A DNA stretch of 32,000 nt, from assembly GCF_000020385.1 (NCBI RefSeq), contig NC_010814.1:1800001-1832000 (forward strand), in the 5' to 3' direction. The stretch's first letter is position 1; every line of letters starts with the position of its first letter. The DNA is from Trichlorobacter lovleyi SZ (GTDB lineage: Bacteria; Desulfobacterota; Desulfuromonadia; Geobacterales; Pseudopelobacteraceae). The notes under the pieces are model-generated. The model was not told where the DNA came from, searched no databases, and was given only the letters and a program-made list of their open reading frames with translations. Below, in pieces: positions 5,745-20,498 of this stretch. Both the position numbers and the translations under genes were made by a program.

Positions 5745-5910
5745 CTTGAGGCAAGATTGAAATATGTTAGGCTTTGTTTGTAGCACCATTCTCAAGGAAA
5801 GGAGATTAACTATGGAAACCGGACAGGGCTGCGTCAAACCGGCAGCAGGTCCACTGGCAGCAGCATCGCCACCACCAACTACAGCACAACTAGCAAAGGA
5901 GGAGCAAACC

Positions 5911-6826: not shown

Positions 6827-6843
6827 TGGCATTCTCTGTGCTT
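6827..6843 (+). promoter_or_regulatory. Sigma54 (-24/-12) promoter
   Basis: TGGCAT-TCTCT-GTGCT has exact GG-N10-GC spacing. It lies about 50 nt upstream of ATG 6893 and is preceded by a very AT-rich tract. Confidence 0.7.
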
Positions 6844-6892
6844 TATACAGAACATCGTGTATCGATCATACGCAGCACCCTGGGAGGATGCC

Positions 6893-7135
6893 ATGAAAAC
6901 GAAAATTGCCAACCTTTTGATTTCGATGCTCGGCGGCAGCGCTACCTCAGCTTTTGCTTCAGATGGCGCACTACAAGATGGTGGTGGACCACTGATCTGG
7001 TTCTTTATCGGCTTTGGGGTACTGGTACTGATGGTACAGGCCGTTCCAGCCTTGGTACTGCTCTATTCAATGGTCAAGGCCGTCTTTAGTCCGTCTGAAA
7101 CCAGCACCACAGCCACCGTTACAGGTCACAAATAA
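6893..7135 (+). CDS. Small signal-peptide + single-TM protein, family S1 (copy C)
   Basis: 80 aa with RBS GGGAGGA. It has a signal peptide ending SAFA and the core LIWFFIGFGVLVLMVQAVPALVLLYSMVKAVF. It is paralogous to 14206-14460 and 18553-18789. Confidence 0.75.
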   Translation: MKTKIANLLISMLGGSATSAFASDGALQDGGGPLIWFFIGFGVLVLMVQAVPALVLLYSMVKAVFSPSETSTTATVTGHK

Positions 7136-7178
7136 GCTGAAACATACAAAACTACTTGTCATCAAGGAGAATGAAGCC

Positions 7179-7445
7179 ATGAAATTTGTTCGTACCATTC
7201 TTACCACCACTGCACTGTCTGTCCTTGGCATGAGTAGTGCCTTTGCTTCCGCAGACCACGCCAACCATGTTGATACCAGCCTGACCTATAACAGCGGCAT
7301 TCTGGTGCTGGCTTTTGCCGGATTTCTGGCCCTGGTGGTTGTTGTGCAGACCATTCCGGCTGTTATCAGCCTCTACAACATGATCAAAAAGACTGCGGCA
7401 GAGAGCAGGCAGCAGCAGGCTGTACGGGCCAATGCACGGGACTGA
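7179..7445 (+). CDS. Small signal-peptide + single-TM protein, family S2 (copy C)
   Basis: 88 aa with RBS AAGGAGA. The core VDTSLTYNSGILVLAFAGFLALVVVVQTIPAVISLYNMIK is nearly identical to 17870-18136, and the nucleotide differences between the two are mostly synonymous. Confidence 0.85.
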   Translation: MKFVRTILTTTALSVLGMSSAFASADHANHVDTSLTYNSGILVLAFAGFLALVVVVQTIPAVISLYNMIKKTAAESRQQQAVRANARD

Positions 7446-7833
7446 GACACATGGCGACGGGGGCGGGTCATTGACTCGCCCCGCTGTTTCTGATGATCAG
7501 CCTGCAGATGAGACTATTGTTTGCTCATTGCCCAATCAGTCTGATCCTGTTGCCTTCAGGCAGGCAATGGACCTGATCCGCAGGCGTAGAAAATACTTCT
7601 TTGCCACCATCATCCTGTATATGCCATTGATGTGGGTATCCAACAAGATCTCTCCCACGTTCCGTAGCATGGCCATCACCTTTGGTATCTGGGTGGTGGT
7701 CCTGTTTATTACTGCCTTGTATTCCGCTCTTGCGCGCTGTCCGCGCTGCGGTCATTACTTTCATATGAACGGCATGTCGCTGCTGTACCTGCGACGGTGC
7801 CTGCACTGTCAAAACCATATAAACGCTTCATAG
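7432..7833 (+). CDS. Membrane protein with C-terminal CxxC...CxxC zinc-ribbon (start uncertain)
   Basis: The 133-aa ORF has two hydrophobic segments (FFATIILYMPLMWV and FGIWVVVLFITALY) followed by CPRCGHYF...CLHCQNH. No family was recognised. Confidence 0.5.
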   Translation: MHGTETHGDGGGSLTRPAVSDDQPADETIVCSLPNQSDPVAFRQAMDLIRRRRKYFFATIILYMPLMWVSNKISPTFRSMAITFGIWVVVLFITALYSALARCPRCGHYFHMNGMSLLYLRRCLHCQNHINAS

Positions 7834-7845
7834 AGGAGATCAAAT

Positions 7846-8016
7846 ATGTTTGGATTTGGAATGCCTGAACTGGTGGTAATACTGGGGATTGTGGTGGTGG
7901 TTTTTGGAGCAGGAAAGCTGCCGGAGATCGGTGCTGCCATGGGTAAGAGCATCAAAAATTTCAAAAGTGCTACAGAAGGAAATGAAGTGGAGTTGCTGCC
8001 CAAAAAAGATCTGTAA
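7846..8016 (+). CDS. tatA: Twin-arginine translocase subunit TatA/E (56 aa, below the ORF-track cutoff)
   Basis: Hand translation gives [56 protein letters not shown]. This is the canonical TatA N-terminus (FG.G..EL..I..V..L.FG..KLPE.G...G). RBS GAGGAG lies upstream. Confidence 0.85.
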
Positions 8017-8079
8017 CCACTCTGGTTGGTTGCTTTCCCTAAAGAGATGAGGCTGGTTTACCCGTTAGTGGTGCCATCC

Positions 8080-8595
8080 TTATTTGCTGTTTTGTCCCAT
8101 CCTGCTTTCAAGTGTCACCAGCGCCTCTTCTTCTTCCCTGATCTGAGCCATGCTTAACGACCAGATATGGTAGCTTTCAAGGCTTAAGATCGTCATGCCG
8201 GTGGCCAGCACGGCCCAGAAGTTCTCCGGCAGCACCCCTGAAAAAAAGTAGAAGGCATAAAAACAGATCAGGTAGCCGATATGGCTGAATGAAACCATCT
8301 TGGGGGAGCCGTTGGTGATCCTGCCCAGCACCAGCAGGATGGCAGAAAAGGCATAGACCACCAGCAAGGCGCTGATCATGTTGCTTGAAGGCGGGGTACC
8401 CAGCATCTTTTTTGCTGCAGGGGTAAGGGGGGGGAAGATCTGGTCGCTGAGCATGGCCGGAATACTGGTGCAGGCAAAAGCAGCTATGGCCCACAACCCC
8501 TGGTGGGAGCGGGTACGTAATCGGCGAATTGATTCCAGCAGGGCGGCGCGCTGCGTTTCCTGAGACAGCGCACTGCCGGATTCCTGATTGGACAT
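8080..8595 (-). CDS. Hypothetical integral membrane protein
   Basis: The 171-aa ORF has about 4 hydrophobic segments. No recognisable motif. Confidence 0.5.
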   Translation of the reverse strand: MSNQESGSALSQETQRAALLESIRRLRTRSHQGLWAIAAFACTSIPAMLSDQIFPPLTPAAKKMLGTPPSSNMISALLVVYAFSAILLVLGRITNGSPKMVSFSHIGYLICFYAFYFFSGVLPENFWAVLATGMTILSLESYHIWSLSMAQIREEEEALVTLESRMGQNSK

Positions 8596-8660
8596 GGGAC
8601 GAGACCTTCTCCGGTTACCGTATGATACCGCTGCCTGAATCCCAACCAGCTTTCGGGCCG

Positions 8661-9515
8661 CTAGCCGTTGTTGTCGGTATCATCCTTTTCTTTGCTGCAA
8701 TTACGGCAGCGTGCAAGTGCTTCACGGGTGTCATTCAGACGTGCCACAATCCGTTGATAATTACGGGCCAGAATGGACAGTTCACCATATCCTGATTCCA
8801 GCTGTTGTTCAAAGTCACATGGTTTTTCGTCGCTGGTAACAGCGAGCAGTTTTTTCAGTGGAACAAAGAATGAACGGTTCAGCAGGGCAGCAACTCCCCC
8901 CACCGTGAGAACCAGCGTCATAAGTGTAAACACTATCATACGGTAGCGCATCAGGGCGAGTGAATTTTGAAGTGGTCCCTGATCAAGCCCGATATCGAGC
9001 ATCCCGAGGACTTTTTGTGAAGGAGCGTGGTAGTGGCACGAGGTGGTTGAACAAGAAGGTTCATTGTAGATCGGTTGGGTCATGGCTAATACTTCAACGC
9101 CACGCTCGTTTGTAAATCGTCTGGTCTGTTTTACCGCAGCCAGCTGTTCAGCCGGTTTTTCCCCGCTGTGGCAACCGCTGCAGCCTTCAACCTTCTTGTT
9201 GACCTGCTGGCCTATTTCAGTCTGGTTGCGTGAGAAGGTGATAAAACCGTCATGATTGAAGACCCGCAGATGTTCAACTCCTTGGTGCTGGCCGATGTTG
9301 GCAATGATACTGCCCAGGTGTTGGCGGTCGTTGTGCAGCATGGCGTAGCGGGTAGAAAGCACAACGGTGTTGGCGATATTTCGCCCCCCTTGTGCTGCGT
9401 CGTCAATCATATCCTGCTTCATGATTGAGTAGAGACTTAAGCAACAGATGGCCACAAAGCCGGTAACGGCAAGACCAACCGGAACGATGGTTCTGGTAGC
9501 GATACTCTGTAGCAT
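8661..9515 (-). CDS. Kinase-less membrane sensor: heme-motif periplasmic domain + HAMP-like tail
   Basis: 284 aa with RBS GGAGGTG. The layout is TM, a periplasmic domain with CSGCH and CSTTSCH, a second TM and a short cytoplasmic helix region. The periplasmic part is colinear with that of kinase 4122-5744 (GVE(H/R)(L/I)R..N.DG.I, C..CH, EPSCST..CH.HA...VLG..DI). Confidence 0.75.
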   Translation of the reverse strand: MLQSIATRTIVPVGLAVTGFVAICCLSLYSIMKQDMIDDAAQGGRNIANTVVLSTRYAMLHNDRQHLGSIIANIGQHQGVEHLRVFNHDGFITFSRNQTEIGQQVNKKVEGCSGCHSGEKPAEQLAAVKQTRRFTNERGVEVLAMTQPIYNEPSCSTTSCHYHAPSQKVLGMLDIGLDQGPLQNSLALMRYRMIVFTLMTLVLTVGGVAALLNRSFFVPLKKLLAVTSDEKPCDFEQQLESGYGELSILARNYQRIVARLNDTREALARCRNCSKEKDDTDNNG

Positions 9516-9559
9516 TGGGCACCTCCGTAGATAGCGCCATGAGTTACATCAGTAAGTTG

Positions 9560-9599
9560 AAAAAGGGCCGACAGAGGGGTGCGCCTCCCTCTGCCGGCC
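9560..9599 (-). terminator. Rho-independent terminator after the dodecaheme cytochrome gene
   Basis: The minus strand reads GGCCGGCAGAGGG-loop-CCCTCTGTCGGCC followed by CTTTTTC. Confidence 0.75.
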
Positions 9600-9607
9600 A
9601 TAACATT

Positions 9608-10621
9608 TCAGGAGCTCTTATGGCACTTCAGGCAGTCGCCTTTGACCGAGAAGGCTGACTTCCCGTCATGGCAGGCGCCGCATGATGCGCCTTTTTCAAT
9701 CTGTTGCATGGTGGTACGTTTACCATTGCCGTAGGGGTACAATTTGGTGTGACAGTCATTGCACTGGAAGGCAGCGGTGTGGAACTCATGGCTGAAGTGG
9801 CCGATGACCGTGCCCTTTATATTTTTAAAGGTCATTTTTGCAGGCAGTTTGAACCCGGTGTGGCACTTGGCGCAGTCGCCCTTGATCGAGAAGGCAATCT
9901 TGCCATCATGACATGCTCCACATGATTGTCCTTTTTCCATATCAGCCATACTGACCCGTTTGTTTTTCTTCATGTCCGGCTTGACAATGGTGGTGTGGCA
10001 GTCTTTGCAACTGTAAGCCGATGTATGGAAGGCGTGGCTGAAGGTTGCCTTGGGCACTGGTGCTGTTTTGTAGGTCAGCTCCGGGCTCTTGTGGCATTTA
10101 CTGCATTTGTCGACACCAAAGGCCTTTTTGTTGTTGTGGCAGAAACCGCAGGATTTGCCTTTTTCCATCTCGGCCATGCTGACCGTGGGGTTTTTACCGG
10201 TCTTGTACAACTTGGTGTGGCAGGTGGCACAATCTTTGACCTTGGTCAGGTGCTTGGTGTGGCTGAAATGGGTAGGCCCGGTTTCTTTGACCTGATAGAC
10301 AATCTCTTTCACCTGATGGCATTTGCTGCACTCATGGGCGTCAAAGGCCTGCTTGCCGTTGTGGCAGGCACCGCAGGATTGCCCCTTGTACATATCAGCC
10401 ATGGTGTAATGCTTCTTGCTCTTATTGCCGGTGTGACAGGTGGCACAGCTAAAAGCGGCATTGCCACGGGCGGATTTTTTTGCAAGGTGTTTGGCATGGC
10501 TGAAGACAACCTTGCCTGCCTCTTTGGTGTCGTAACTGATATCTTTCAACTCTATCGCACCGGCCTGGGAGGCGATCAGGCCGACCAGTCCTGCCAGTGC
10601 AAGTGTTAGGGCGCGTTTCAT
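9608..10621 (-). CDS. Dodecaheme c-type cytochrome built from four c7-type triheme units
   Basis: 337 aa with a signal peptide and 12 CxxCH motifs arranged as four repeats of ~75-80 aa (F.H..H....C..CH ... M....G.SCG.CH.GK.AF....C.KCH). Confidence 0.9.
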   Translation of the reverse strand: MKRALTLALAGLVGLIASQAGAIELKDISYDTKEAGKVVFSHAKHLAKKSARGNAAFSCATCHTGNKSKKHYTMADMYKGQSCGACHNGKQAFDAHECSKCHQVKEIVYQVKETGPTHFSHTKHLTKVKDCATCHTKLYKTGKNPTVSMAEMEKGKSCGFCHNNKKAFGVDKCSKCHKSPELTYKTAPVPKATFSHAFHTSAYSCKDCHTTIVKPDMKKNKRVSMADMEKGQSCGACHDGKIAFSIKGDCAKCHTGFKLPAKMTFKNIKGTVIGHFSHEFHTAAFQCNDCHTKLYPYGNGKRTTMQQIEKGASCGACHDGKSAFSVKGDCLKCHKSS

Positions 10622-10679
10622 AACGATCTCCTGAATCCTTCCGCCTGTGGTGTGTCAGGCGGAAGGATGGTCGGTTATA

Positions 10680-12011
10680 TTACTTGCTGCTTGCCGCTTC
10701 GGCCTCTGCAATGGCGGCTGGCTGTGGTTCAAGTACTGCATAGTCGCTGTAGCGGGTCTTCCATTTGAACAGGATCGGCCAGCGGTACAGAATTGCACGG
10801 TAGGTGACGATGTAGACCGAGTAGACCGTGACGGTGATGATGATCTCGCGGATTGGCGGGATATGGACATGGCCCTGCTGCCAGTTAAAGGTAAACATGT
10901 AGACATTCAGGCGGTTCAGCACAACACCGATAATGGTTGTCCAGGCGCCCAGCCGTACCAGCGCGACACTGTTGTTTCTGATGCCTGCGGTTAACAGAAT
11001 CAGGGAGAGAATTACGCCAAATCCGATTTCAAACATCCACCAGGCACCCCAGCCGGTTCCCAGATAGGCCCACTTGTTGTCATGGGCAATACCGATCAAA
11101 CGGATGGTCAGGTAGGTGATCAGGCCCATGGAGGCACCTTTGGCCAGGGCGATCTGCAGTTTGCTCAGGCTGTTCTTGAAGGTGTCATCGCAGCGCCATT
11201 GCATGGTCTTGACGGCGATGGTACTGACTACGATTACCATGCAGAGGCCGCCGGGCAGCGACGATACAAAGAAGTAGAGCCACTGGAAAGAGGATGAATA
11301 CCAGAGCGGATGTACTTTGCCCGGTGCATAGGTGGAGAGTGCGCCCAGAGCGCCCTGGTGCAGGGTTGAAAGGATAATACCGGCTACTGCCAAGCCCAAT
11401 GCCATCTTCTTCACAAAGGTTTTGCCGGCTGGCCAGCCCATCCATTCAAAGAAGGCGGTTGAGGTTTCAGCAGCCTGTACCGACAGGTAGGTGGCAACGT
11501 GCCAGGCCACCAGGAACAGCACCGCCTCAGGCCCCCAGGAAACCACCATCGGGTAGGGCAAACGCCAGGGTTGGCCAAGGTCAACCATCAGGAACATGAC
11601 TGCAAAGAAGTAACCCAGAATACCGTTCAGGATGCCCAGGCGCTCAATCGGCTCAAAGTCATGCCGCCCAAACACCTCAACCGCAGAGCCCAGCTGGAAA
11701 CCTGATGATGAAAGCGGCACCATGCCGAACAGACCAAAGGCCAGAAACAGACCCCAGGCGTTGTCGTAGGGGTCACCCACGGCCCAGGAAAGGCCGAAGA
11801 TATAGCGGCCGATCAGCACCGGGAAGCCGATCAGGAAGATCACGGCAAAGATCCAGTTCAGCGGGTTACTCATGGCCTGTGACAGATACTGCTGCGGGGT
11901 CAGGCCGAGGAAGATCTTTTCCATCAGGGTCCAGGGACGACCCTTATCATCATCCTTACGCAGACTGCTGATGATCTGCGTGTTGGGATTGCGTGTCAGA
12001 AACTGTTTCAT
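10680..12011 (-). CDS. NrfD/PsrC-family polytopic membrane quinone-interacting subunit
   Basis: 443 aa and highly hydrophobic, with about 10 TM segments. Its start overlaps the FeS-subunit stop (ATGA). It sits in the NrfD position of NrfCD/PsrBC/ActBC-type modules. Confidence 0.8.
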   Translation of the reverse strand: MKQFLTRNPNTQIISSLRKDDDKGRPWTLMEKIFLGLTPQQYLSQAMSNPLNWIFAVIFLIGFPVLIGRYIFGLSWAVGDPYDNAWGLFLAFGLFGMVPLSSSGFQLGSAVEVFGRHDFEPIERLGILNGILGYFFAVMFLMVDLGQPWRLPYPMVVSWGPEAVLFLVAWHVATYLSVQAAETSTAFFEWMGWPAGKTFVKKMALGLAVAGIILSTLHQGALGALSTYAPGKVHPLWYSSSFQWLYFFVSSLPGGLCMVIVVSTIAVKTMQWRCDDTFKNSLSKLQIALAKGASMGLITYLTIRLIGIAHDNKWAYLGTGWGAWWMFEIGFGVILSLILLTAGIRNNSVALVRLGAWTTIIGVVLNRLNVYMFTFNWQQGHVHIPPIREIIITVTVYSVYIVTYRAILYRWPILFKWKTRYSDYAVLEPQPAAIAEAEAASSK

Positions 12012-12916
12012 TGGTGATCTCCCTCCTCATGGTCATGGTGGCCATCCTTGTTCTTGGTCGCCAGCAGATGTACGCCGGTGAACAGGGCCGGCCAGATGGA
12101 AAGTACCATCGGTACGAATCCCAGGAAGTCTTTGACGTTGGAGATGATCGGCTCATTCTGGATATGGCCGTCCATACCGACCTTGTCGAAATCAACACTG
12201 CTCAGGTACATCCAACTGGTGCCGCCAACGGCCTTTTCACCATATAACTTGTCCACATATTTGCCGGGGTTGGCCTGAATCCGGTCATGACCCAGCTTGA
12301 TCAGGTCTGCCCTGCGGCCAAAGGTCATCACCTGCTGAGGACAGATTTCTACACATGCGGGAGGCTTGCCGTCTTTCAGGCGGGTGTCGTAACAGAAGAT
12401 GCATTTTTTAACCAATGGGTTCAGCGGGCTTGAGTAGCTGTAAGCCGGGATATTGAAGGGGCAGGCGATCATACAGTTACGGCAGCCGACGCAGACCTTG
12501 GCGTTGTAGATAACCGCGCCTTCCTTGGTCTTGGTGTAGGCGTTGACAAAGCAGGAGCTGAGGCAGGCCGGCTCAGTGCAGTGGTTACACTGAATCTTGC
12601 GGTACAGGGTATCCTTGTCGGCAACTTTGTACTCGTTGACAATGGTATAGGCCTTTTCTGTTGTACGACGCTTATCCTTGAATACTGACATGTCATCAAA
12701 TGGCAGATCCGGCTCCGGCAGTTTCTGTTCAGCATTGCAGGCAGCCTCACAACTACGGCAGCCTACACAACGGGTCAGGTCAACCAGCACCCCCATAGCA
12801 TCCGGGTATCCTTCAAATGAACCGGCAGCCATCGCCTTGCCACTGGCAACGCTTACGGTCGCAGCGGTCACACCGCAGGCCAGGCACCCTTTCAGAAAAT
12901 CTCGACGTTCAATCAT
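12008..12916 (-). CDS. Tat-exported 4Fe-4S ferredoxin-type subunit (NrfC/HybA/PsrB-like) with C-terminal TM anchor
   Basis: The start is taken at ATG 12916 (RBS GGAAGGAGAA), giving MIERRDFLKGCLACG, a twin-arginine signal. Cluster motifs are CVGCRSCEAAC, CNHCTEPAC, CVGCRNCMIAC and C..C...CVEIC. The longer track ORF start was rejected. Confidence 0.88.
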   Translation of the reverse strand: MIERRDFLKGCLACGVTAATVSVASGKAMAAGSFEGYPDAMGVLVDLTRCVGCRSCEAACNAEQKLPEPDLPFDDMSVFKDKRRTTEKAYTIVNEYKVADKDTLYRKIQCNHCTEPACLSSCFVNAYTKTKEGAVIYNAKVCVGCRNCMIACPFNIPAYSYSSPLNPLVKKCIFCYDTRLKDGKPPACVEICPQQVMTFGRRADLIKLGHDRIQANPGKYVDKLYGEKAVGGTSWMYLSSVDFDKVGMDGHIQNEPIISNVKDFLGFVPMVLSIWPALFTGVHLLATKNKDGHHDHEEGDHQ

Positions 12917-12947
12917 GGTACACGTTCTCCTTCCCGTGGATATCGGT

Positions 12948-13478
12948 TCAGTGGTGTGCTGTCTTTGGTTTGGCAGGCGCCTTGGGGGCATGTTTGCCGG
13001 ACTTGAAGATGGCATCTCCGCCGTCATTGCGTTTGTGGCAGTCCTGACAGCCGGTGGGGCCGTTCATCTTCTGGTGGCAACCCAGGCAGCTGATATGGTA
13101 GGCGGCCTTGAGGCCCGGCTTGTCGCGATGGTAAACCGGTGGTTGCTGATCGCGCTGCTGTTTGAGTGCTTCAGGGGTAAATGGATCTGCAACGTGGCAG
13201 CCCTTGCAGCTGACCACCGGTTGGGCGCCACTGTTTTTGTGACAGCGGGCACAGTTAGGATCGGTTACCTGGGCACCGGTGGTGTGGTGGTGACAGAGGC
13301 CGCAGTCTTTCAGCCTGTTGATGTGTGCTGCATGGTTAAAACTGACCGGTGCGTAGTACTTCTGAATTGAACCGATGCTGACCTTGTCCGGGATACCGGC
13401 GCCAAAGCAGACGTTGGACACCAGCATCATCAGGATGCCTGTTATTCCCAGGATCATCTTTTGTTTTACTGCATGCAT
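12948..13478 (-). CDS. Membrane-anchored pentaheme cytochrome c (c3/ActA-like)
   Basis: 176 aa with an N-terminal hydrophobic anchor. It has 5 CxxCH motifs: CGLCH, CARCH, CKGCH, CLGCH and CQDCH. Confidence 0.88.
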   Translation of the reverse strand: MHAVKQKMILGITGILMMLVSNVCFGAGIPDKVSIGSIQKYYAPVSFNHAAHINRLKDCGLCHHHTTGAQVTDPNCARCHKNSGAQPVVSCKGCHVADPFTPEALKQQRDQQPPVYHRDKPGLKAAYHISCLGCHQKMNGPTGCQDCHKRNDGGDAIFKSGKHAPKAPAKPKTAHH

Positions 13479-13501
13479 AGCCCTCTCCTTGTAAAAGATG
13501 G

Positions 13502-13528
13502 CCGGTATCTATTTGCTGCAGATACCGG
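13502..13528 (-). promoter_or_regulatory. Intercistronic stem-loop between the 58-aa gene and the pentaheme cytochrome gene
   Basis: The 9-bp inverted repeat CCGGTATCT ... AGATACCGG has a 9-nt loop and no clear U-tract. It may be an attenuator or an mRNA stability/processing element. Confidence 0.4.
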
Positions 13529-13552
13529 TAGTTAGTGCAGAAACGGATGCTC

Positions 13553-13729
13553 CTAATGGGCTGCTTCCTGGGTACTGTTCTTGCCACTCATCATGTAGCG
13601 GTAGAACATCGGAAAGCCGACAAAGAATGCGACGCAGATCAGGTATTCAACCGTTTTGATGTACTGGTAAAAATCCACCAGCGTGTAAACCGACTTGACA
13701 TGTCCAATTGCACTGAATAACTCCGTCAT
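13553..13729 (-). CDS. 58-aa single-TM protein (family T, copy A), not in the ORF track
   Basis: Hand translation gives MTELFSAIGHVKSVYTLVDFYQYIKTVEYLICVAFFVGFPMFYRYMMSGKNSTQEAAH. RBS AAGGAGGAAGG lies upstream. It shares 51/58 identical residues with 17670-17846. Confidence 0.8.
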   Translation of the reverse strand: MTELFSAIGHVKSVYTLVDFYQYIKTVEYLICVAFFVGFPMFYRYMMSGKNSTQEAAH

Positions 13730-13795
13730 GATCCTTCCTCCTTTTATCTGTGCCGACCAATGACCGGCTGTATTTGCTATTCTTGATGCCCGGCG

Positions 13796-14176
13796 TTATG
13801 AGTTTTTCATATTCTCAAAGGCGCAGGCCACGGCCTGGCGCAGCTCTTCACGATCTGCCGGATCAATCGGCTTCAGGGAGTGGTAAAAGATCCCTTCCTT
13901 GCGCATCTTGCGGATAACCGGTAGTGAGGTCTCGTCCGAAACCAGTATGATGGTCAGATCACGGCTGCACTTCTTCAGCAGCGGGATCAGTTCTGCTGCT
14001 GCAAGTTCGTCAAATTCACTGCTTAACAGCACCACCTGGGCTGATTTTTTTAAAATTCCGTGCAGTACATTGGCGGCCGAGGTGGTTACCATCACGTTAT
14101 AGCCGGCCTCAATGCAGAGGTCGGCCAGCACCTTACGGGATTCAACGTTTTCATCTGCTATCAGAACACCTTGCAT
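13796..14176 (-). CDS. Stand-alone receiver-like (pseudo-receiver) protein lacking the phospho-acceptor Asp (copy A)
   Basis: 126 aa with a CheY-like pattern (VLIADEN..., TIILVSDE, FYHSLKP). The acceptor position reads VVLLSSEF, with S where D is expected. It is paralogous to 18155-18541. Confidence 0.75.
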   Translation of the reverse strand: MQGVLIADENVESRKVLADLCIEAGYNVMVTTSAANVLHGILKKSAQVVLLSSEFDELAAAELIPLLKKCSRDLTIILVSDETSLPVIRKMRKEGIFYHSLKPIDPADREELRQAVACAFENMKNS

Positions 14177-14205
14177 AGCGGTTACCTCTGTCCTTTAGGG
14201 AAAAG

Positions 14206-14460
14206 CTACTTCTCGCCTTTTCCCTTAAAGGGGGAGAAGGTGGCCTCAGCCTGGTTGCTGGAAAACAGCCCTTTCATCATTGATGCAAACATCACGATGG
14301 CCGGTGCTGCCTGGAACAGGACCAACATCACACCAAAACCGATGAAGAACCAGACCAGCATCATGCCATTGCCACCCTGCTCTAAACCAGTTGTTGCGGC
14401 GAATGAGGCGGTTGCGCTACCGGTGAGCATAGGGACCAGTGTTTTTGCTGCTGCTTTCAT
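14206..14460 (-). CDS. Small signal-peptide + single-TM protein, family S1 (copy A)
   Basis: The start is taken at ATG 14460 (RBS GGGGGAGA), giving 84 aa: MKAAAKTLVPMLTGSATASFAATTG...LVWFFIGFGVMLVLFQAAPAIVMFASMMKGLF. The longer track ORF start (14571) has no RBS and would run through the predicted promoter. Confidence 0.75.
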   Translation of the reverse strand: MKAAAKTLVPMLTGSATASFAATTGLEQGGNGMMLVWFFIGFGVMLVLFQAAPAIVMFASMMKGLFSSNQAEATFSPFKGKGEK

Positions 14461-14509
14461 GATCTCCCCCGAGTGGATCTTGAGAATTATTAAAATACAC
14501 TTACAATAG

Positions 14510-14525
14510 AGCACGCATCGTGCCA
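14510..14525 (-). promoter_or_regulatory. Sigma54 (-24/-12) promoter
   Basis: The minus strand reads TGGCAC-GATGC-GTGCT with exact GG-N10-GC spacing, about 50 nt upstream of ATG 14460. Confidence 0.75.
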
Positions 14526-14616
14526 GTATTGGATCGAACGGGAAGTTGGTTTTCAACATGCTGATATACATAGGTAATTATTGGGGTATAGGATGTGCAA
14601 AACGCGGTTTTGATTT

Positions 14617-14633
14617 GTGTATACTGTATACAC
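14617..14633. promoter_or_regulatory. Perfect 8-1-8 palindrome, candidate enhancer (UAS)/operator
   Basis: GTGTATAC-T-GTATACAC lies about 95-110 nt upstream of the sigma54 promoter at 14510-14525. That is the usual distance for an enhancer-binding-protein site. Confidence 0.4.
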
Positions 14634-14785
14634 CATTGATACATCAAGGTAGGTGTAGGGCAGTTGCTTGTCTCTGTTGTTGATTTAAATACCTGTTGCT
14701 ATTGCATAATATTAAAGTGTATGAATTTTTTATACGAAGGGTGGGGTGTATGAAACAGGTGATGGCTCAAACAGGCTTCTGAATA

Positions 14786-14820
14786 TGAAAAAGCCTCCCC
14801 CGGAAAACAGGGAGAGGCTT
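14786..14820 (-). terminator. Rho-independent terminator after the 490-aa cytochrome gene
   Basis: The minus strand reads AAGCCTCTCCC-TGTTTTCC-GGGGGAGGCTT followed by TTTCATATT. Confidence 0.75.
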
Positions 14821-14844
14821 GACAGCGAAGGCCGCTGGCAGATT

Positions 14845-16317
14845 TTACTGCCGGACAGCAACGACCTTTTTCAGGGAAATCATATCCACTACCGGCAAGA
14901 CCGGTATCTGTGTGACACCATAATCACGGGACAGGTTAATATCATCAGGTACTGCCTTAAGCAGCTTCTCAGCTACCTGTTGGTCTGCCTGACGATAGCG
15001 CAGCTTGACCTCAATTGTTACCTGCTTGGTTCCACCGGGTACCTGTACGCCAAACCAGGCATCTTTAAATCCTTTGGGCGGAATGGTCTCGTGACTTGAA
15101 AAGGCTGTGACCACCCAAGGATCTATAGCGAAGTGCGTGTCGCTACCCATGCCGTCAGAATTGAATTTACGTACATTTGACGGCAGCGATCCGTCTTTGT
15201 TCAGACTGCCGCTTGCTATGACTACCTTGCCTTTTTCATCGGTTGCACGGACTTCAAGCCACATCTGGCGGACATTGGTCAGTGATGTCGGTAGATTGTG
15301 TCCGGCACGGATATTCTTGACTCGTACCTTTACCTCTGCCAATCGCCCGTTACGATAATCTGGAGTTATTTCAAGTTCTGCTGCCTTCTGAAGGCGCTTG
15401 ACCGCCATTTCGTACTGTTTCATCAAACGCACAGACTGCTGCTTGTCACCAGACTTTTTAGCCGCCTCGGCAGACAGGAAATAAAGCAGATAGTTAGCCC
15501 CGTTAAAGTAGTGACGATACTCCTTGCGCTGGGGCTTGGTCATACTGTCGGCTGTTTTAACAAACGTGTCGTGGTCGACCATGTGACAGTCTTGGCAATG
15601 GATGTCTTTCTGGGCGTAAGGGCTGTGTTTCCACTCAAGGTAGGTTGCCTCCAGAGGATAGTGCTTGTCATAGTGGTACACCTGATGACAGGAGGCGCAC
15701 AGATCTGCTTTGACATGGAAGTCAGTCTGTTTGCATTCATGGAAGCCGCCCCCACATTCTTCAGCTGGCTTATGGGGGCCACGCTTGACCAGAACCGGGC
15801 TGTCCTTGCCATCCTCGCCAGGGCGCAGAACCAGTGAGCCGTTTTCAGGCTCTTTACTGGGGGTCCTGCAGTGATTCAGAGAGCTGACTGAGTGGCAGAC
15901 ATCGCAGGAAACTCCAGCCTTGGCAACAGGAGACAGTCCCTTGAGACCTGGGCCGCTTACCTCGCCGGTAACGGTCGCTGCCGGTGTATGGCAGCTGGAA
16001 CAGTGGCGTCCGATCTCTTTGCCCACTGCCTTGACCGCCTTGTTCATTTCCCCCTGATAGACCGGATCAACAAAGGCCAGGCTATGCAGTGAGCCATGCC
16101 ATTCTTCATACTGCTGCTGGTGACAGCCTGCGCAGGTTTCTGGCTCAGTGAAGTTGGCTTTTGTTTTCTCATACACCATAAGAGAAGGGTAAAATTTGAA
16201 CAGATCCCGATCAACCGGAAAGACGCTTGAAGAAGACGGGGAGGCGGCAAGTGCCACTGCACAGGCGATGATGAGCATTATGGCAGCTACGCAGATGAGC
16301 AGCAGGTGACGTTGCAT
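14845..16317 (-). CDS. Secreted pentaheme c-type cytochrome (cytochrome c554/NrfA-fold-like N-domain plus large C-terminal beta-type domain)
   Basis: 490 aa with a signal peptide. It has 5 CxxCH motifs: CAGCHQQQYEEWHGSLHS, CSSCH, CDVCH, CASCH and CQDCH. Confidence 0.85.
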   Translation of the reverse strand: MQRHLLLICVAAIMLIIACAVALAASPSSSSVFPVDRDLFKFYPSLMVYEKTKANFTEPETCAGCHQQQYEEWHGSLHSLAFVDPVYQGEMNKAVKAVGKEIGRHCSSCHTPAATVTGEVSGPGLKGLSPVAKAGVSCDVCHSVSSLNHCRTPSKEPENGSLVLRPGEDGKDSPVLVKRGPHKPAEECGGGFHECKQTDFHVKADLCASCHQVYHYDKHYPLEATYLEWKHSPYAQKDIHCQDCHMVDHDTFVKTADSMTKPQRKEYRHYFNGANYLLYFLSAEAAKKSGDKQQSVRLMKQYEMAVKRLQKAAELEITPDYRNGRLAEVKVRVKNIRAGHNLPTSLTNVRQMWLEVRATDEKGKVVIASGSLNKDGSLPSNVRKFNSDGMGSDTHFAIDPWVVTAFSSHETIPPKGFKDAWFGVQVPGGTKQVTIEVKLRYRQADQQVAEKLLKAVPDDINLSRDYGVTQIPVLPVVDMISLKKVVAVRQ

Positions 16318-16341
16318 GAATATTCCTCCTTTGGCAGCTAT

Positions 16342-16809
16342 TTATGAGCGTAATGTTGCAACAATACGCTGGGGCACCATCAGCAGCCCCAGGGCATCGT
16401 ACATGCTTCTGACAACAAGGTCCGCATGCAGGATGGCGCTTGCTGCAGTCCCTTCTCCTTCAAGCACGGCAATACCAAGGCGGGCTGCCTTCAGCATCAG
16501 CCGGTCATTGGCTCCATTGCCCATGGCAACCACCGTGTCAGCTCCCAACGCCTGTATGTATGCCTCTTTCTGTTCTGCCTCGTTGCCGCTTGTGATGATA
16601 TGCAGTCTGCAGGGCAGCCCTTCAAGCTCCTGCCTGACCGTGCCGCCGGTATCAGCGGTAAGCACATGGACGGTAATTTTTTCAGCCAGTTCGGTAAGTG
16701 TCTTATCAAGATTGGACAGTAACTGCCCGTCACGGGCAATGGTGCCGTTGTAGTCCAAGACCAGATGTTGCAGCTCTAAGGTCCCTGTTCCGGGAATAGT
16801 TAGTAACAT
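16342..16809 (-). CDS. HAD-superfamily protein resembling the soluble P-type-ATPase-like (COG4087-type) group
   Basis: 155 aa with LVLDYNGTIA (DxxGT-type motif I) and AMGNGANDRLMLKAARLGIAV (GDGxND-type motif). Its start overlaps the upstream stop. Confidence 0.65.
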   Translation of the reverse strand: MLLTIPGTGTLELQHLVLDYNGTIARDGQLLSNLDKTLTELAEKITVHVLTADTGGTVRQELEGLPCRLHIITSGNEAEQKEAYIQALGADTVVAMGNGANDRLMLKAARLGIAVLEGEGTAASAILHADLVVRSMYDALGLLMVPQRIVATLRS

Positions 16810-17069
16810 GGCGCAGGTTCCCCTTGGGTGCGAATCTGTTGTACCGTTTCAGTAATTTCCCTGATACCACAGGATTCACTGAAGCAACCGGCTCCGGCAT
16901 ACAGATCAAAGTTGCTCAGCTGCCCGATCAGCTTTCTGAGATCAGCTTCATGCTCAAGCACGCCGGGGTATTCTGTAAGGGTGAGGATTTCTGAAAGCAG
17001 GCTGTCAGGCAGCTCGGCATCCTGATTCTGCTCAACAGCAACCTGACGCAACTCTTCAAGTAATGTCAT
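16800..17069 (-). CDS. Hypothetical acidic 89-aa protein
   Basis: The ORF is translationally coupled to the HAD gene by a 10-nt overlap. It has a C-terminal CFSESC motif. No family was recognised. Confidence 0.45.
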   Translation of the reverse strand: MTLLEELRQVAVEQNQDAELPDSLLSEILTLTEYPGVLEHEADLRKLIGQLSNFDLYAGAGCFSESCGIREITETVQQIRTQGEPAPCY

Positions 17070-17247
17070 GGACTGCCCCTCCGTTAAATGATTTGTGAAT
17101 ATATTTTAATGCTGTGCAGTATGCCAAAGTACCTTGCTGCAGTAAAGTAGGAACAGCACGAGGAGACTGGTATCTGCCAAGCCTCCTCGTGTTTTGACTG
17201 CAACGTCTGTGTGGGGGGCTGGCAGTGTTGTCTTTGCCGCTGCAGCA

Positions 17248-17562
17248 TCAGATCAGGCAGAGTGTTGAGAGGATGTGATTTGCGGATTCGTCTGCTGCAC
17301 TGACCACACAGATCCCTGATCGTAACATTGATTCCTTAATTTCCTGCTCAGGCATATGTGTGCAGACAAGCTGCTTAACATTCAAAGAAATCAGCCATGC
17401 TGCCAAAAGAGGCTGTTCGCTGGCATCCCAGACACCCATGTTGACATTACTGGTATTTCCGTTTCTGTCGTCATATTCCAGCAAGAAAAAAATCCGCTCA
17501 AATCCTTTGCCTTCATAGGTAAGTGAGCCATAGTAGGGTATAGCGGTTTTAATTATGGTCAT
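17248..17562 (-). CDS. Hypothetical protein, possibly NifX/NifB-type domain
   Basis: 104 aa. It has a weak layout similarity to PF02579-type proteins (IIKTAIPYYG...ERIFFLLEYD...NVKQLVCTHMPEQEIKESMLRSGICVV). Confidence 0.4.
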   Translation of the reverse strand: MTIIKTAIPYYGSLTYEGKGFERIFFLLEYDDRNGNTSNVNMGVWDASEQPLLAAWLISLNVKQLVCTHMPEQEIKESMLRSGICVVSAADESANHILSTLCLI

Positions 17563-17610
17563 GGATTGGTTTCTTTTGATCTGTCCTGCGAGGTAGACTG
17601 CTGGGAAAAT

Positions 17611-17649
17611 GTTGCACAGGGGGCCTTCTGAGTCAGCCCCCTGTGCAAC
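17611..17649 (-). terminator. Strong stem-loop after the 58-aa gene (attenuator or partial terminator)
   Basis: The 14-bp inverted repeat GTTGCACAGGGGGC ... GCCCCCTGTGCAAC has an 11-nt loop. On the minus strand it is followed by ATTTTCCC, a weak U-tract. Confidence 0.5.
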
Positions 17650-17669
17650 AAAGCGTTATCAGTTTTGCC

Positions 17670-17846
17670 TTAATGTGCCGTTTCCTGTGTGCTGCTCTTG
17701 CCGCTCATCATATACTTGTAGAACATCGGAAAACCGACAAAGAAGGCAACGCAGATCAGGTATTCAACGGTCTTGATGTACTGGTAAAAATCAACCAGCG
17801 TGTAGACAGATTTAACATGGCCTATGGTATCGAAAAGTGCTGACAT
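17670..17846 (-). CDS. 58-aa single-TM protein (family T, copy B), not in the ORF track
   Basis: Hand translation gives MSALFDTIGHVKSVYTLVDFYQYIKTVEYLICVAFFVGFPMFYKYMMSGKSSTQETAH. RBS GGGAGGATACC lies upstream. Confidence 0.8.
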   Translation of the reverse strand: MSALFDTIGHVKSVYTLVDFYQYIKTVEYLICVAFFVGFPMFYKYMMSGKSSTQETAH

Positions 17847-17869
17847 GGTGGTATCCTCCCTATGGTTAA

Positions 17870-18136
17870 CTACCTGTTGGATGAAGTTGAACTGGCTTCC
17901 TTGTTTTTAACTGCTTCAGCCGCCCCCTTGATCATGCCGTACAGGCTGATCAGGGCCGGGATGGTCTGGACAACCACTACCAGCGCCAGGAATCCGGCAA
18001 AGGCCAGGACCAGGATGCCGCTGTTATAGGTCAGGCTGGTATCGACGGCATCTCCATGACCGGCAGAGGCCAGGGCGGTTGTCAGGCTTGCAAACAGCAG
18101 GCTTACGGTGTTGATGATGGTTGCGGTTGTTTTCAT
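17870..18136 (-). CDS. Small signal-peptide + single-TM protein, family S2 (copy B)
   Basis: 88 aa with RBS AAGGAGAA. The core is VDTSLTYNSGILVLAFAGFLALVVVVQTIPALISLYGMIK. Confidence 0.85.
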   Translation of the reverse strand: MKTTATIINTVSLLFASLTTALASAGHGDAVDTSLTYNSGILVLAFAGFLALVVVVQTIPALISLYGMIKGAAEAVKNKEASSTSSNR

Positions 18137-18154
18137 GGCAGTTCTCCTTGTTCG

Positions 18155-18541
18155 TTAGCAGTAACAACGCTTTGGTTGGTGTAAGGCACAGTTGATAACC
18201 TGCTTCAACTCTTCTCTGTCTTCCGGCAGTACCGGTCGCAGCAGGTGATAAAAAATTCCTTCATTGCGCATCTTGCGTATCACCGGCAGCGATACCTCAT
18301 TTGAAACCAGGATGATGGTCAGATTTCTGCAACATTTTTTAAAGAGCGGGATCAGGTCTGTTGCGGCAAGTTCATCAAAGCTGCTGCCCAACAGAATCAC
18401 CTGTGCTGTTTTCTTCAGGATTCCCTGTAGCACGCCGGCTGCGGTGGTGGTGACGGTCACACTGTAGCCTGCCTCCATGCAGAGATCTGCCATCACCTTG
18501 CGGGATTCAGGGTGCTCCTCAGCAATCAAGATACGGCTCAT
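18155..18541 (-). CDS. Stand-alone receiver-like (pseudo-receiver) protein lacking the phospho-acceptor Asp (copy B)
   Basis: 128 aa. The acceptor position reads VILLGSSF (G instead of D), and the conserved Lys position reads LLRP. Confidence 0.75.
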   Translation of the reverse strand: MSRILIAEEHPESRKVMADLCMEAGYSVTVTTTAAGVLQGILKKTAQVILLGSSFDELAATDLIPLFKKCCRNLTIILVSNEVSLPVIRKMRNEGIFYHLLRPVLPEDREELKQVINCALHQPKRCYC

Positions 18542-18552
18542 GGCTGGCTCCT

Positions 18553-18789
18553 TCAGTGTTTGCTGGCGGTTACTTCTTTGTCTGAATGGGCAAACAGCCC
18601 TTTCAGCATGGAGGCAAATAGAATCATGGCCGGTACTGCCTGCAGCATGATTACCATGATGCCAAATCCTATGAATCCCCAGATCAGCAAGCCGTTATCT
18701 TCAGCTCCTGCCCCTGTAGTGGCAGCAAAGGCAGCTGCTGCACCTGCTCCACTTAATGCTATGACCATTTTGATGATGGTTGCTTTCAT
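18553..18789 (-). CDS. Small signal-peptide + single-TM protein, family S1 (copy B)
   Basis: The start is taken at ATG 18789 (RBS AAGGAGGA), giving 78 aa: MKATIIKMVIALSGAGAAAAFAATTG...LIWGFIGFGIMVIMLQAVPAMILFASMLKGLF. Confidence 0.75.
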   Translation of the reverse strand: MKATIIKMVIALSGAGAAAAFAATTGAGAEDNGLLIWGFIGFGIMVIMLQAVPAMILFASMLKGLFAHSDKEVTASKH

Positions 18790-18834
18790 GACATCCTCCT
18801 TGTGCTGCATCAGTTCCTGCTTGTCTTCATACTA

Positions 18835-18850
18835 AGCATAGACAGTGCCA
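18835..18850 (-). promoter_or_regulatory. Sigma54 (-24/-12) promoter
   Basis: The minus strand reads TGGCAC-TGTCT-ATGCT with exact GG-N10-GC spacing, about 45 nt upstream of ATG 18789. An AT-rich tract lies upstream. Confidence 0.75.
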
Positions 18851-19085
18851 ATAACTGAAAATGTACTGAATATCTGTGTAATATGCTGATATTATTTGAT
18901 TCAATCTGTGCTAAAGCATGGGTGGAGCGGGATGGGGAATCTGTTGGAGAGTATTGCTTTGCTATGCACCAACCTGGCAAAGTTACGTGCGTAAACATAT
19001 AACACGCTGAAAATACACTAATATAATGTGCTGAGGGAAAGCTGGCTGCTGTATGAGGGAATCATGCAGGGGGGATTGGCTGGCG

Positions 19086-20498
19086 TCAGACTCCTGGTTC
19101 CTGAATCGGCAGGCAAACCGCAATGGTCGTGCCTTCGTCTGAGGATGAGGCTATGGAGACAAAACCACCATGCTGCTGCAGGGTGCCAAAGGCCATGGAA
19201 AGCCCCAGTCCGGTGCCTTGCCCCACCTCTTTGGTGGTAAAGAACGGATCAAAGATCTTCTGCCTGATTTCTTCAGGAATACCAGAGCCCTGATCAGTCA
19301 CCATCATGCGGGCAAATGGTCCACGGTGGGATGAGTTGTGGAGCCGTAACAACTCTGGATCTGGAATCAGTACCAGCCTGGTTTCAATCGTAATCGTGCC
19401 GCCGTTGGGCATGGCATCACGGGCATTGGTCAGCAGATTAAACAGCACCTGCTGCAGCAGGGTGCTGTCAGCCGTAATATGCAGCGGTTCCTGACAAGGG
19501 ATGAACTCAAGCTGTACCGTCTTGGGCAACAGTTTCCGGCCTAATATGAGCGCGTCAGCCAGCATTCGGTTCAGTTCCAGTGGTTTCATCCGCATAAACT
19601 GCTTGCGGCTGAACGCCAGCATACTGCGGGTCAGGTTTGATCCTCGCTCCACCGCCGTGATCATCTCCTGCAGGCTGGTATACACCGGATCATCGGCGTT
19701 AAATCGCTCCATGGCCAGGCGGGTGTTGTTTGAGACAATCTGTAGAATGTTGTTGAAGTCATGGGCGATACCACCGGAAAGCTGGCCCACCGCCTCCATC
19801 TTCTGGGCCTGCCGTAGCTGTTCCTCAATCTGCAGTTTTTCCGTAATGTCCATAAAACTGCAGACCATCCCCACCGCCTGCTGACCATCCCGCATCGGCA
19901 AAACACTATAGGAGACCGGGAACGAGCTGCCATCCCTGCGCCAGAACAGTTCATTCTCAATCACATTGACCACGCCGGTTTCGCTCATCCGGTGGGCCGT
20001 ACACTCCTCAGCCGGATAGTGGCTGCCATCCGGTCTGGTGTGGTGCATCAGGTTGTGCATCTGCTGTCCCAGCAACTGTTCCGGGGTGTCAAACCCCAGC
20101 ATCCGGGCACAGGCCTTGTTGGCCATGGTGCAGCAACCATGATGATCAGTACCGTAGATCCCCTCCTGGGTTGAGTCCAGTAATAACTGGATTTTGTAAA
20201 GATGCTCCTGCTGTCTGGCATCACTGGCAAGCTGCTGTTTGCGCTTGATGGCAAAAAGCAGGCAGACAGCGCTCATCGCCACAAAGAGCAGTAATCCGAC
20301 CGGTACCAGCGAACTCAGCAGATGCGCATGCAATTGACCTAAAAACTGATCATCAGACCGAACTCCGATCTGTGTCAGGAAGGTCTTGTGGGCATGCTCA
20401 TCCACTTCAAAGAGAAACAACATGCTGCTGATATAGACCAAAGAGGCCGGAATAAAGCGGTTTAGAAACAATTTGCTCAATGACGGAAGCGCTTTCAT
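19086..20498 (-). CDS. Membrane histidine kinase (2 TM, PAS, HisKA, HATPase)
   Basis: 470 aa. The PAS region is [21 protein letters not shown]. The H-box is GGIAHDFNN, with N/G boxes NARDAM, DQGSGI and GTGLGLSMA. Confidence 0.88.

Follow-up and report, generated by a model that had tools for sequence, protein, structure and literature searches.

A leader of small membrane proteins and an Asp-less pseudo-receiver common to Hmc-like and cbcBA loci

The 32,000-nt stretch of a Trichlorobacter (Geobacter) lovleyi-type genome analyzed here (the window) raises the question of what a recurrent set of tiny genes contributes to the cytochrome operons in whose company it is found. Three copies of this leader lie within positions 6827–18850, in cassettes that combine small membrane proteins (S1 and S2), a pseudo-receiver (RR), and a protein of 58 amino acids (aa) termed T. 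Every open reading frame (ORF) that a sequence-only reading had placed in the three cassettes is present at its position in the ORF list, and the paralogy of the parts is reproduced by their identities (45–51% in pairwise comparisons of the S1 copies, 58% overall for S2, 88% for T, and 68% for the two receivers). Each small ORF has an upstream Shine-Dalgarno sequence, and the public gene calls agree with the ORFs of the window, except for an over-long S1a.

The leader is triplicated in the T. lovleyi-type genome. Cassette A consists of S1-RR-T and is followed by the genes of an Hmc-like complex (a pentaheme cytochrome, an iron-sulfur protein, and an NrfD-like protein) and of a dodecaheme cytochrome. 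Cassette B has the order S1-RR-S2-T and then a terminator-like hairpin, after which come genes encoding a 104-aa protein, an 89-aa protein, a HAD-like protein, and a 490-aa pentaheme cytochrome. Cassette C (S1-S2-zinc-ribbon protein-TatA) is convergent to the end of the block downstream of A, past the genes of a sensor-only and a 171-aa protein (Table 1). The entire region corresponds, in its T. lovleyi-type form, to the "Cbc5-type" supercluster for low-potential respiration in Geobacterales.

A genome scan seeded with T recovered 77 loci, whose counts are not phylogenetically independent; this neighborhood survey documents that the module is conserved and co-localized also outside the window genome, as had been proposed. 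An S gene lies within 1.6 kb upstream of 75 of the 81 T genes and a receiver gene upstream of 62, and genes encoding the pentaheme cytochrome, the HmcB-like iron-sulfur protein, and the HmcC-like NrfD-type protein follow T in 46 of 70 cases. The commonest layout is a divergent activator and S1-RR-S2-T-pentaheme-HmcB-HmcC-(dodecaheme)-heme sensor-171-aa membrane protein; the split layout of the window occurs in Trichlorobacter and some Desulfuromonadaceae. S2 is encoded in cis in 20 operons, where the convergent cassette is absent, and is provided by an adjacent convergent S1-S2-zinc-ribbon(-TatA) cassette in 11 others, with three exceptions that have both or neither. Other S-(RR)-S-T units stand alone and have a promoter and a terminator of their own; cassette B belongs to this kind.

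The same leader precedes a second type of quinol oxidase. A distant member of the S family led to a locus (L082) that encodes an S protein, a 238-aa fusion of receiver and S (RR::S), a 7-heme CbcA, a CbcB of family PF01292, and a homolog of the 171-aa protein. Its CbcA matches PDB entry 28pb_A at 7.6e-100, which presumably is the CbcA structure that a 2026 review gives as "2BPB". A metagenome scan with the CbcB of L082 yielded 80 loci, 30 of them with full upstream sequence. Among these 30 leaders, 26 combine S with RR, an RR::S fusion, or a long (~240 aa) RR; two contain S alone or S-S, and the remaining two an RR without a preceding S. The T gene is absent from all 80 cbcB loci. By their gene content, the 30 leaders and the absence of T thus point to S-RR-S as the core leader of both Hmc-like and cbcBA loci, with T tracking only the Hmc-like module and its duplicated leaders.

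In G. sulfurreducens, the corresponding operon comprises a sigma54 promoter, the hypothetical gene GSU0597, the receiver gene GSU0596, the hypothetical gene GSU3489, cbcA, and cbcB, with the regulator BccR encoded alongside (Joshi, Chan and Bond 2021, bioRxiv 10.1101/2021.04.15.440034). The GSU0597-0593 operon is sigma54- and BccR-dependent and induced late in Fe(III) reduction; CbcB is a diheme cytochrome b, and CbcBA-type clusters are reported to be the most conserved cytochrome clusters of Geobacter and needed where respiration approaches its thermodynamic limit (bioRxiv 10.1101/2021.04.15.440034). The likeness to the BccR/sigma54-controlled cbcBA region that the sequence-only reading had suggested is right in substance by this published gene order. 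In gene order, the shared features are the sigma54 promoter, a small hypothetical protein, a receiver-only protein, and a second small hypothetical protein before the genes of the quinol oxidase, a nearby gene for an NtrC-type activator, and a dodecaheme cytochrome downstream. By contrast, the window has the pentaheme cytochrome, the HmcB-like and HmcC-like proteins, and T in place of the 7-heme CbcA (with its C-terminal anchor) and CbcB, its leader is triplicated, and its activator gene is not divergent from the operon but lies on the strand of cassette C, 2.7 kb upstream of it.

The small proteins S1 and S2 form a single undescribed family of about 80 aa with a QxxP motif inside a membrane helix. 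All five S proteins of the window fit one design, namely an N-terminal signal-peptide-like segment ending in small-x-small, the pattern GF..AL...Q..P in one long hydrophobic helix, and a short basic tail; the residues Q, P, A, M, and K are invariant in an alignment of S1 and S2, in agreement with the motif described before. A profile search of 1.84 billion representatives (clusters at 50% identity) delimited a family of 474 clusters, 109 of them below 1e-10. The best 150 of the 474 are nearly all 70–90 aa long, and QxxP is present in 144 of 146 short representatives. The placement of S1 and S2 outside characterized families is upheld, as the S proteins gave no Pfam or NCBIfam match and all 461 homologs of S1c among the matches listed are annotated as hypothetical.

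The S2 copies of cassettes B and C share 38 of the 40 residues of their core, and the earlier codon count is reproduced exactly, with 17 of 120 nucleotides differing and 13 codons changed synonymously versus 2 non-synonymously. The synonymous excess and the conservation well past the window genome bear out purifying selection on the small proteins. Whole S1 and S2 proteins are 35–50% identical between genera, as opposed to 60–77% for T; the S2 core is near-invariant within its own subfamily, and the QxxP helix motif is kept across the S family. The public call of S1a is 121 aa long and starts at 14571 (adding 14461–14571), which is upstream of the -24/-12 element; the likely product is therefore the 84-aa form with a predicted GGGGGAG ribosome-binding site.

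Both receivers of the window score above the gathering score of PF00072. In a gapless alignment to Spo0F, S52 of RRa falls on the phospho-acceptor D54, and the canonical Asp position is occupied by Gly or Ser, but never by Asp, in 80/80 Hmc-type and 28/28 cbcBA-type orthologs, so the receivers are Asp-less as had been stated. Of the other pocket residues, most receivers retain the first Asp (D12 equivalent) and the Lys (K109 equivalent); the D13 equivalent is Glu in the Hmc-type receivers and mostly Arg or Lys in the cbcBA type. Apparent Asp-containing receivers in a MAFFT alignment anchored only on CheY arose from a mis-registered column and were overturned by the gapless Spo0F alignment and pairwise mapping. 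A recent origin of the pseudo-receiver by copying of the receiver of the activator was rejected, as BLAST showed no similarity between the two.

RR::S fusions of differing sequence are present in at least nine cbcBA loci (examples are L082/L087 at 12169-12885 on the minus strand, L088, L089, L091, L099, L103, L125, L139, and L157), and one type with a Pro/Ala linker recurs in independent samples. A more divergent S domain is probably present in several other receivers of ~240 aa. Two fusions of RR and S2 with short linkers (P0452 and P0492) were found on one contig each and may be stop-codon losses or errors, and the long-linker fusions, which recur in many loci, are therefore given more weight. 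The fusions start with the receiver, which is predicted to be cytoplasmic; then come a helix like that of a signal peptide, a short loop in the periplasm, and the QxxP helix. This order suggests a role of S proteins as membrane tethers of the pseudo-receiver. The frequency of the fusions in cbcBA loci likewise suggests a physical association of the two proteins at the membrane.

The earlier view that the 58-aa protein T cannot be placed in a characterized family was not borne out. T matches the NCBIfam model of HmcD with 21.6 bits (E 1.7e-4; cut-off 34), all 23 family members tested match the same model (best 1.7e-6), and homologs of T carry the precomputed Pfam label PF28260 "DVU_0533", flagged as "weak"; DVU_0533 is the locus tag of HmcD. 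A search of the T profile against PDB sequences returned nothing useful. The synteny with HmcB-like and HmcC-like genes supports the view that T is a distant member of the HmcD family, and because of these downstream genes, T is best read as a putative subunit of the complex that they encode. Between Ta and Tb, 19 codons are changed synonymously versus 7 non-synonymously.

The iron-sulfur and NrfD genes noted earlier behind cassette A are better placed as HmcB-like and HmcC-like. The long ORF of the HmcB-like protein and the end of the pentaheme gene have 80 nt in common (12948–13027); the true start of the HmcB-like protein is probably the Met at 12916, where the Tat signal begins, in agreement with the public call of 302 aa, and a hydrophobic C-terminus is visible in the translation. 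The HmcC-like protein has HybB as its second-best match, no Pfam NrfD match at 1e-3, and no match among PDB sequences; it is a relative rather than an equivalog. The similarity of the pentaheme cytochrome to the HmcA model is local and C-terminal only (49 bits, cut-off 400).

Cassette A thus appears to head an Hmc/9Hc-like quinol:cytochrome c oxidoreductase, with the D gene first and the dodecaheme cytochrome after it. Like Hmc (HmcABCDEF), it appears to combine a Tat-dependent, tail-anchored four-cluster iron-sulfur protein, an NrfD-type ten-helix subunit, a small hydrophobic peptide (all that papers say of HmcD), and a multiheme cytochrome. The nine-heme 9HcA-D complex of Desulfovibrio has the same likeness of parts. 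All scores of the window remain below the equivalog cut-offs, the cytochrome has 5 hemes instead of 16 or 9, and the HmcD-like gene comes first and not after HmcC. The window also lacks HmcE and HmcF, as no ORFs for a cytochrome b or a cytoplasmic CCG protein of these types occur at 8000–19000. Moreover, the operon has a predicted sigma54 promoter and the S and pseudo-receiver leader, and, in a metal reducer, it probably works in the direction of quinol oxidation and not in sulfate respiration.

Hairpins 3′ of both T genes, as reported previously, were found. In 17 orthologous spacers between T and the pentaheme gene, four of the eight pairs keep pairing through double changes. Hairpins are strong (z -4 to -7) wherever T has no pentaheme gene next to it and weaker ahead of a pentaheme gene. 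The statement that two cassettes head cytochrome operons therefore holds for A but is doubtful for B, given the 13-bp terminator-like hairpin after Tb and the stand-alone S-RR-S-T units elsewhere.

All three S1 genes have the motif TGGCAY-N6-TGCT 61–66 nt 5′ of their ATG, at 6827 (+), 14525 (-), and 18850 (-). The strict sigma54 consensus TGGCAC-N5-TTGC has no match across the window, and the loose pattern GG-N10-GC is not enriched there (10 observed versus 10.2 expected). Since the motif of the window alone is weak evidence, the case for promoters rests on position and conservation. A stricter -24/-12 motif occurs at a fixed distance 5′ of 64 of the 76 S1 genes in the T-seeded loci (background 0.056 per kb) and ahead of 22 of the 30 cbcBA leaders with full upstream sequence. 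The proposed sigma54 linkage is in this way confirmed as a sequence motif, and the three cassettes and their orthologs carry conserved predicted sigma54 (-24/-12) promoters. In 66 such promoters, ATACAG/CTGTAT motifs, often palindromic, cluster at -120 to -100 and -220 to -200 from the -24 element, which is the usual geometry of activator sites and makes them candidate binding sites.

The candidate for a BccR-like regulator of all three promoters is the NtrC-type activator encoded at 2717–4135. Over its full length, it is 61–71% identical to the activators encoded divergently from S1 in loci of Geomonas, Citrifermentans, and Geobacter, a conservation on par with that of the operon's own enzymes. 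A clear NifX/NifB-type protein with a FeMo-cofactor-binding domain (2355-2693, +; PF02579, 2e-18) is encoded directly 5′ of the activator.

Table 1. Cassette genes, regulatory elements, and neighboring features, with positions counted from the first nucleotide of the window
Feature	Position	Strand	Matches and remarks
NtrC-type sigma54 activator (receiver, AAA+, helix-turn-helix)	2717..4135	+	Pfam Sigma54_activat 4e-70; Response_reg 1e-35
HAMP histidine kinase, partner of the activator	4122..5744	+	Pfam HAMP, HisKA, HATPase_c; adjoins cassette C in related genomes
-24/-12 sigma54-type promoter, cassette C, TGGCATTCTCTGTGCT	6827..6842	+	motif match; orthologous position conserved
S1c (cassette C), 80 aa; signal-peptide-like segment, then membrane helix with QxxPA	6893..7135	+	
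S2c (cassette C), 88 aa; S family	7179..7445	+	
Zinc-ribbon membrane protein (cassette C), 133 aa; two helices, C-terminal CxxC...CxxC	7432..7833	+	weak zinc-ribbon Pfam matches only
TatA/E paralog (cassette C)	7846..8016	+	PF02416 1e-18; TIGR01411 68 bits
171-aa membrane protein, possible CbcE equivalent	8080..8595	-	no family match
Sensor-only protein, 284 aa; helix, Cache-like periplasmic domain with CxxCH heme motif, helix, HAMP-like tail	8661..9515	-	weak sCache Pfam matches
Intrinsic-terminator-like hairpin 3′ of dodecaheme gene	9566..9599	-	13-bp stem and T run
Dodecaheme c7-type "nanowire" cytochrome (CbcC/GSU1996-like)	9608..10621	-	TIGR04257 4 copies, 321 bits; PDB 3ov0 8e-80
HmcC-like NrfD-family membrane quinol-interacting subunit	10680..12011	-	NF045714 HmcC 5.9e-94, 315 bits, cut-off 550, over 369 residues
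HmcB-like 4x[4Fe-4S] protein; Tat signal, C-terminal membrane tail	12008..13027	-	NF045715 HmcB 8e-118, 392.9 bits, cut-off 420; TIGR01409
Pentaheme cytochrome c, 176 aa, 5 CxxCH	12948..13478	-	weak matches: HmcA C-terminus 3e-13, nine-heme cytochrome 3e-10
Conserved hairpin between Ta and pentaheme gene, CCGGTATCT...AGATACCGG, then CCATCTTTT	13502..13528	-	
Ta (cassette A), 58-aa HmcD-like single-helix protein	13553..13729	-	19 invariant positions in family
RRa (cassette A), stand-alone pseudo-receiver; Ser at phospho-acceptor position	13796..14176	-	PF00072 4.4e-10
S1a (cassette A), 84 aa; S family	14206..14460	-	
-24/-12 promoter, cassette A, TGGCACGATGCGTGCT	14510..14525	-	motif match; nearly invariant among orthologs
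Palindromic upstream motif GGTGTATACAGTATACAC, candidate activator site	14617..14634	-	~110 nt 5′ of -24 element
Terminator-like hairpin 3′ of 490-aa cytochrome gene	14791..14820	-	parts B-side genes from cassette A
Pentaheme cytochrome, 490 aa	14845..16317	-	PF13435 1e-9; weak ExtKL-type match
HAD-like 155-aa, GSU3529-family 89-aa, and 104-aa proteins	16342..17562	-	NF045727 GSU3529_fam 1.9e-24 (89-aa); HAD and P-type-ATPase-like matches
13-bp GC-rich terminator-like hairpin, then CATTTT, 3′ of Tb	17612..17648	-	
Tb (cassette B), second 58-aa HmcD-like protein	17670..17846	-	
S2b (cassette B); S family	17870..18136	-	identical to protein annotated hypothetical in Trichlorobacter lovleyi
RRb (cassette B), pseudo-receiver; Gly at phospho-acceptor position	18155..18541	-	PF00072 2.5e-8
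S1b (cassette B), 78 aa; S family	18553..18789	-	
-24/-12 promoter, cassette B, TGGCACTGTCTATGCT	18835..18850	-	motif match; conserved in orthologs
PAS histidine kinase upstream of cassette B	19086..20498	-	Pfam PAS, HisKA, HATPase_c

Several neighbors of the cassettes are conserved with them. The 284-aa sensor has no kinase or other output domain and weakly resembles the N-terminal parts of BarA and LetS; its gene is kept behind that of the dodecaheme cytochrome in Hmc-type loci and also occurs in some of the cbcBA loci. A homolog of the 171-aa protein is encoded immediately after CbcB in most cbcBA loci; in Hmc-type loci, it comes after the heme sensor. The PAS kinase ("HK470") keeps its position before S1b-type cassettes in L003, L004, L009, L017, L020, and L066; an octaheme cytochrome of the tetrathionate-reductase family (20619-22055, +; TIGR04315, 636 bits) is encoded divergently from it in the window. 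Downstream of cassette B, the 104-aa protein (17248-17562, -; possibly NifX-like) has one weak match, to the C-terminus of MrpORP. The order S-S-zinc-ribbon(-TatA) of cassette C is kept in related loci, and in the cbcBA locus L115, a cassette of this composition, including TatA, lies 3′ of cbcB. TatA is therefore not linked exclusively to the Tat-dependent HmcB-like protein.

Two further observations concern other genes of the window. A peroxiredoxin gene (5764-6516, +) is interrupted by an in-frame TGA (6055-6057) at the position of the peroxidatic Cys (FTFV-TGA-PTE), and a GC-rich hairpin, GACGGCGGTCGCCGTC, starts 15 nt downstream of this codon; the product is probably a selenocysteine enzyme rather than a pseudogene, to judge from this arrangement. 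The 1323-aa subtilase encoded at 22836-26807 (-), with PA, Fn3-like, and Listeria-Bacteroides repeat domains, is unrelated to the cassettes.

The best reading of the leader is that of a membrane-tethered pseudo-receiver module of a BccR-type sigma54 regulon, with a probable role in regulatory feedback and with T as a structural Hmc-type subunit, an inferred mechanism that we consider as likely to be right as wrong. The part with the best prospects is that of T, which would quite likely be a structural single-helix subunit of the HmcB/HmcC-like module. On the strength of the natural RR::S fusions, it is fairly probable that S1 and S2 are inner-membrane proteins that expose a short stretch to the periplasm and a tail to the cytoplasm, and that they hold the pseudo-receiver at the membrane. 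Because phosphorylation at the canonical site is impossible, the pseudo-receiver might act by protein-protein contact, as feedback or partner-switching on the NtrC-type activator or the kinases that drive the same promoters, a step that is offered tentatively and by analogy. Such feedback would follow the small-protein logic of PspB/C-PspA-PspF or MgrB. The TatA of cassette C may add Tat capacity for the tail-anchored HmcB-like protein, a weak link given that this type of cassette adjoins a cbcBA locus as well.

The phage-shock system (PspF, PspA, and PspB-PspC) likewise combines a sigma54 operon, small membrane proteins, and a cytoplasmic protein. By analogy, the cytoplasmic protein could toggle between membrane proteins and the AAA+ activator, with a feedback coupled to the energetics of the membrane. 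The sequences are unrelated, however; the activator encoded in the window contains a receiver domain and has partner kinases, and the putative cytoplasmic partner is of the receiver fold instead of the PspA fold. MgrB, SafA, and MzrA are small membrane-protein feedback regulators of sensor kinases, and Asp-less or pseudo-receivers are known to signal without phosphorylation. Like these regulators, the S proteins would be tiny bitopic proteins encoded within the regulon that they could modulate, but the sequences are unrelated, and the leader is a fixed set of two paralogous small proteins and a pseudo-receiver, sometimes with T, in which the pseudo-receiver is often fused to a small protein.

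A purely structural role is the less probable but most serious alternative. The inner-membrane quinol:cytochrome c oxidoreductase would then contain S1, S2, and T as additional single-helix subunits, comparable to the small ones of alternative complex III, and the pseudo-receiver as a peripheral cytoplasmic subunit without regulatory function. This alternative would account for the HmcD-like character of T beside HmcB-like and HmcC-like genes, the well-conserved membrane helices (T across genera, the QxxP motif across the S family, the S2 core within its subfamily), the provision of S2 either in cis or by an adjacent cassette, and the common promoter of leader and complex genes in most genomes. 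The structural role is at odds, however, with the occurrence of the same S-RR-S leader before two unrelated membrane subunits, CbcB (PF01292) and the NrfD-type HmcC-like protein, with stand-alone leader copies that have their own sigma54 promoter and terminator but no complex genes, and with the presence of three leader copies versus one Hmc-like complex in the window; a receiver fold would also be odd for a structural subunit. Regulatory feedback is favored because the leader serves two unrelated membrane subunits, can stand alone, and keeps its sigma54 promoter.

A role in biogenesis appears improbable. The small membrane proteins, the zinc-ribbon protein, and TatA would then assist Tat/Sec insertion and cofactor loading of the iron-sulfur protein and the cytochromes while remaining outside the mature machinery, which would fit the TatA paralog of cassette C, the Tat signal and C-terminal tail of the HmcB-like protein (tail-anchored iron-sulfur proteins with a Tat signal are integrated by Tat according to a published study), and the NifX-like, HAD-like, and GSU3529-family genes after cassette B. 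However, the S-S-zinc-ribbon-TatA cassette of L115 lies beside a cbcBA locus in which no HmcB-like iron-sulfur gene with a Tat signal was detected, most genomes with a full leader have no TatA nearby, and the pseudo-receiver and its fusion to S are left without a role. That the small ORFs are not genes, or that the -24/-12 matches are due to chance, would agree with the lack of family annotation of the small proteins and with the chance-level frequency of the loose promoter pattern. This explanation is practically excluded by the synonymous excess, the hundreds of full-length homologs, the Shine-Dalgarno sites, the gene order and promoter position kept in 64 of 76 orthologs, and the transcription of the equivalent operon in G. 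sulfurreducens (bioRxiv 10.1101/2021.04.15.440034).

Several points weigh against the feedback module as outlined above. The contact of the pseudo-receiver with the activator or the kinases is hypothetical, and RRa has no BLAST similarity to the receiver of the activator encoded in the window. Some receivers have acidic residues 1–4 positions past the canonical site, so that an atypical phosphorylation is possible. The bitopic nature of the S proteins, with their predicted signal-peptide cleavage and topology, is deduced from sequence alone. The conservation of T, the helix motif of the S family, and the near-invariant core of S2 are equally typical of tightly packed structural subunits. As for T, its HmcD match is sub-threshold and the Pfam match weak, and its duplication together with S-RR-S away from HmcBC genes, as in cassette B and the stand-alone units, is a poor fit to a role solely as HmcBC subunit. 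The equivalence of the leader to GSU0597, GSU0596, and GSU3489 is inferred from gene order and the homologous cbcBA loci; G. sulfurreducens was not among the 120 matches listed in the homolog searches with T, S1/S2, and the receiver. The interdependence of the locus counts, noted above, adds to these reservations.

A more far-reaching version of the feedback module, which we regard as doubtful, is a phosphorylation-independent membrane signaling device made up of S1, S2, and the Asp-less receiver, to which T, the 171-aa protein, and the kinase-less heme sensor may also belong. It would inform the sigma54 activator of the redox or energetic state at the quinone/cytochrome interface. If this were true, the device would set when Geobacterales turn on their lowest-potential branch, whichever quinol oxidase (CbcBA or Hmc-like) is present.

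The operon context of the leader is already known, and its genes have been noticed in print but left uncharacterized; within the literature searched, the novelty appears to lie in the definition of the families, the link to HmcD, the swap of modules, and the fusions of RR and S. For annotation, T should be labeled HmcD-like, and S1/S2 merit a family definition. The first three genes of the well-studied cbcBA operon have been left as "hypothetical", which is a blind spot in the pathway. These leader genes represent two large conserved families that move as a unit with a sigma54 promoter and are common to two unrelated quinol-oxidase modules, and they bear on how the low-potential branch is turned on and on which small subunits are missed by current models of the complexes.

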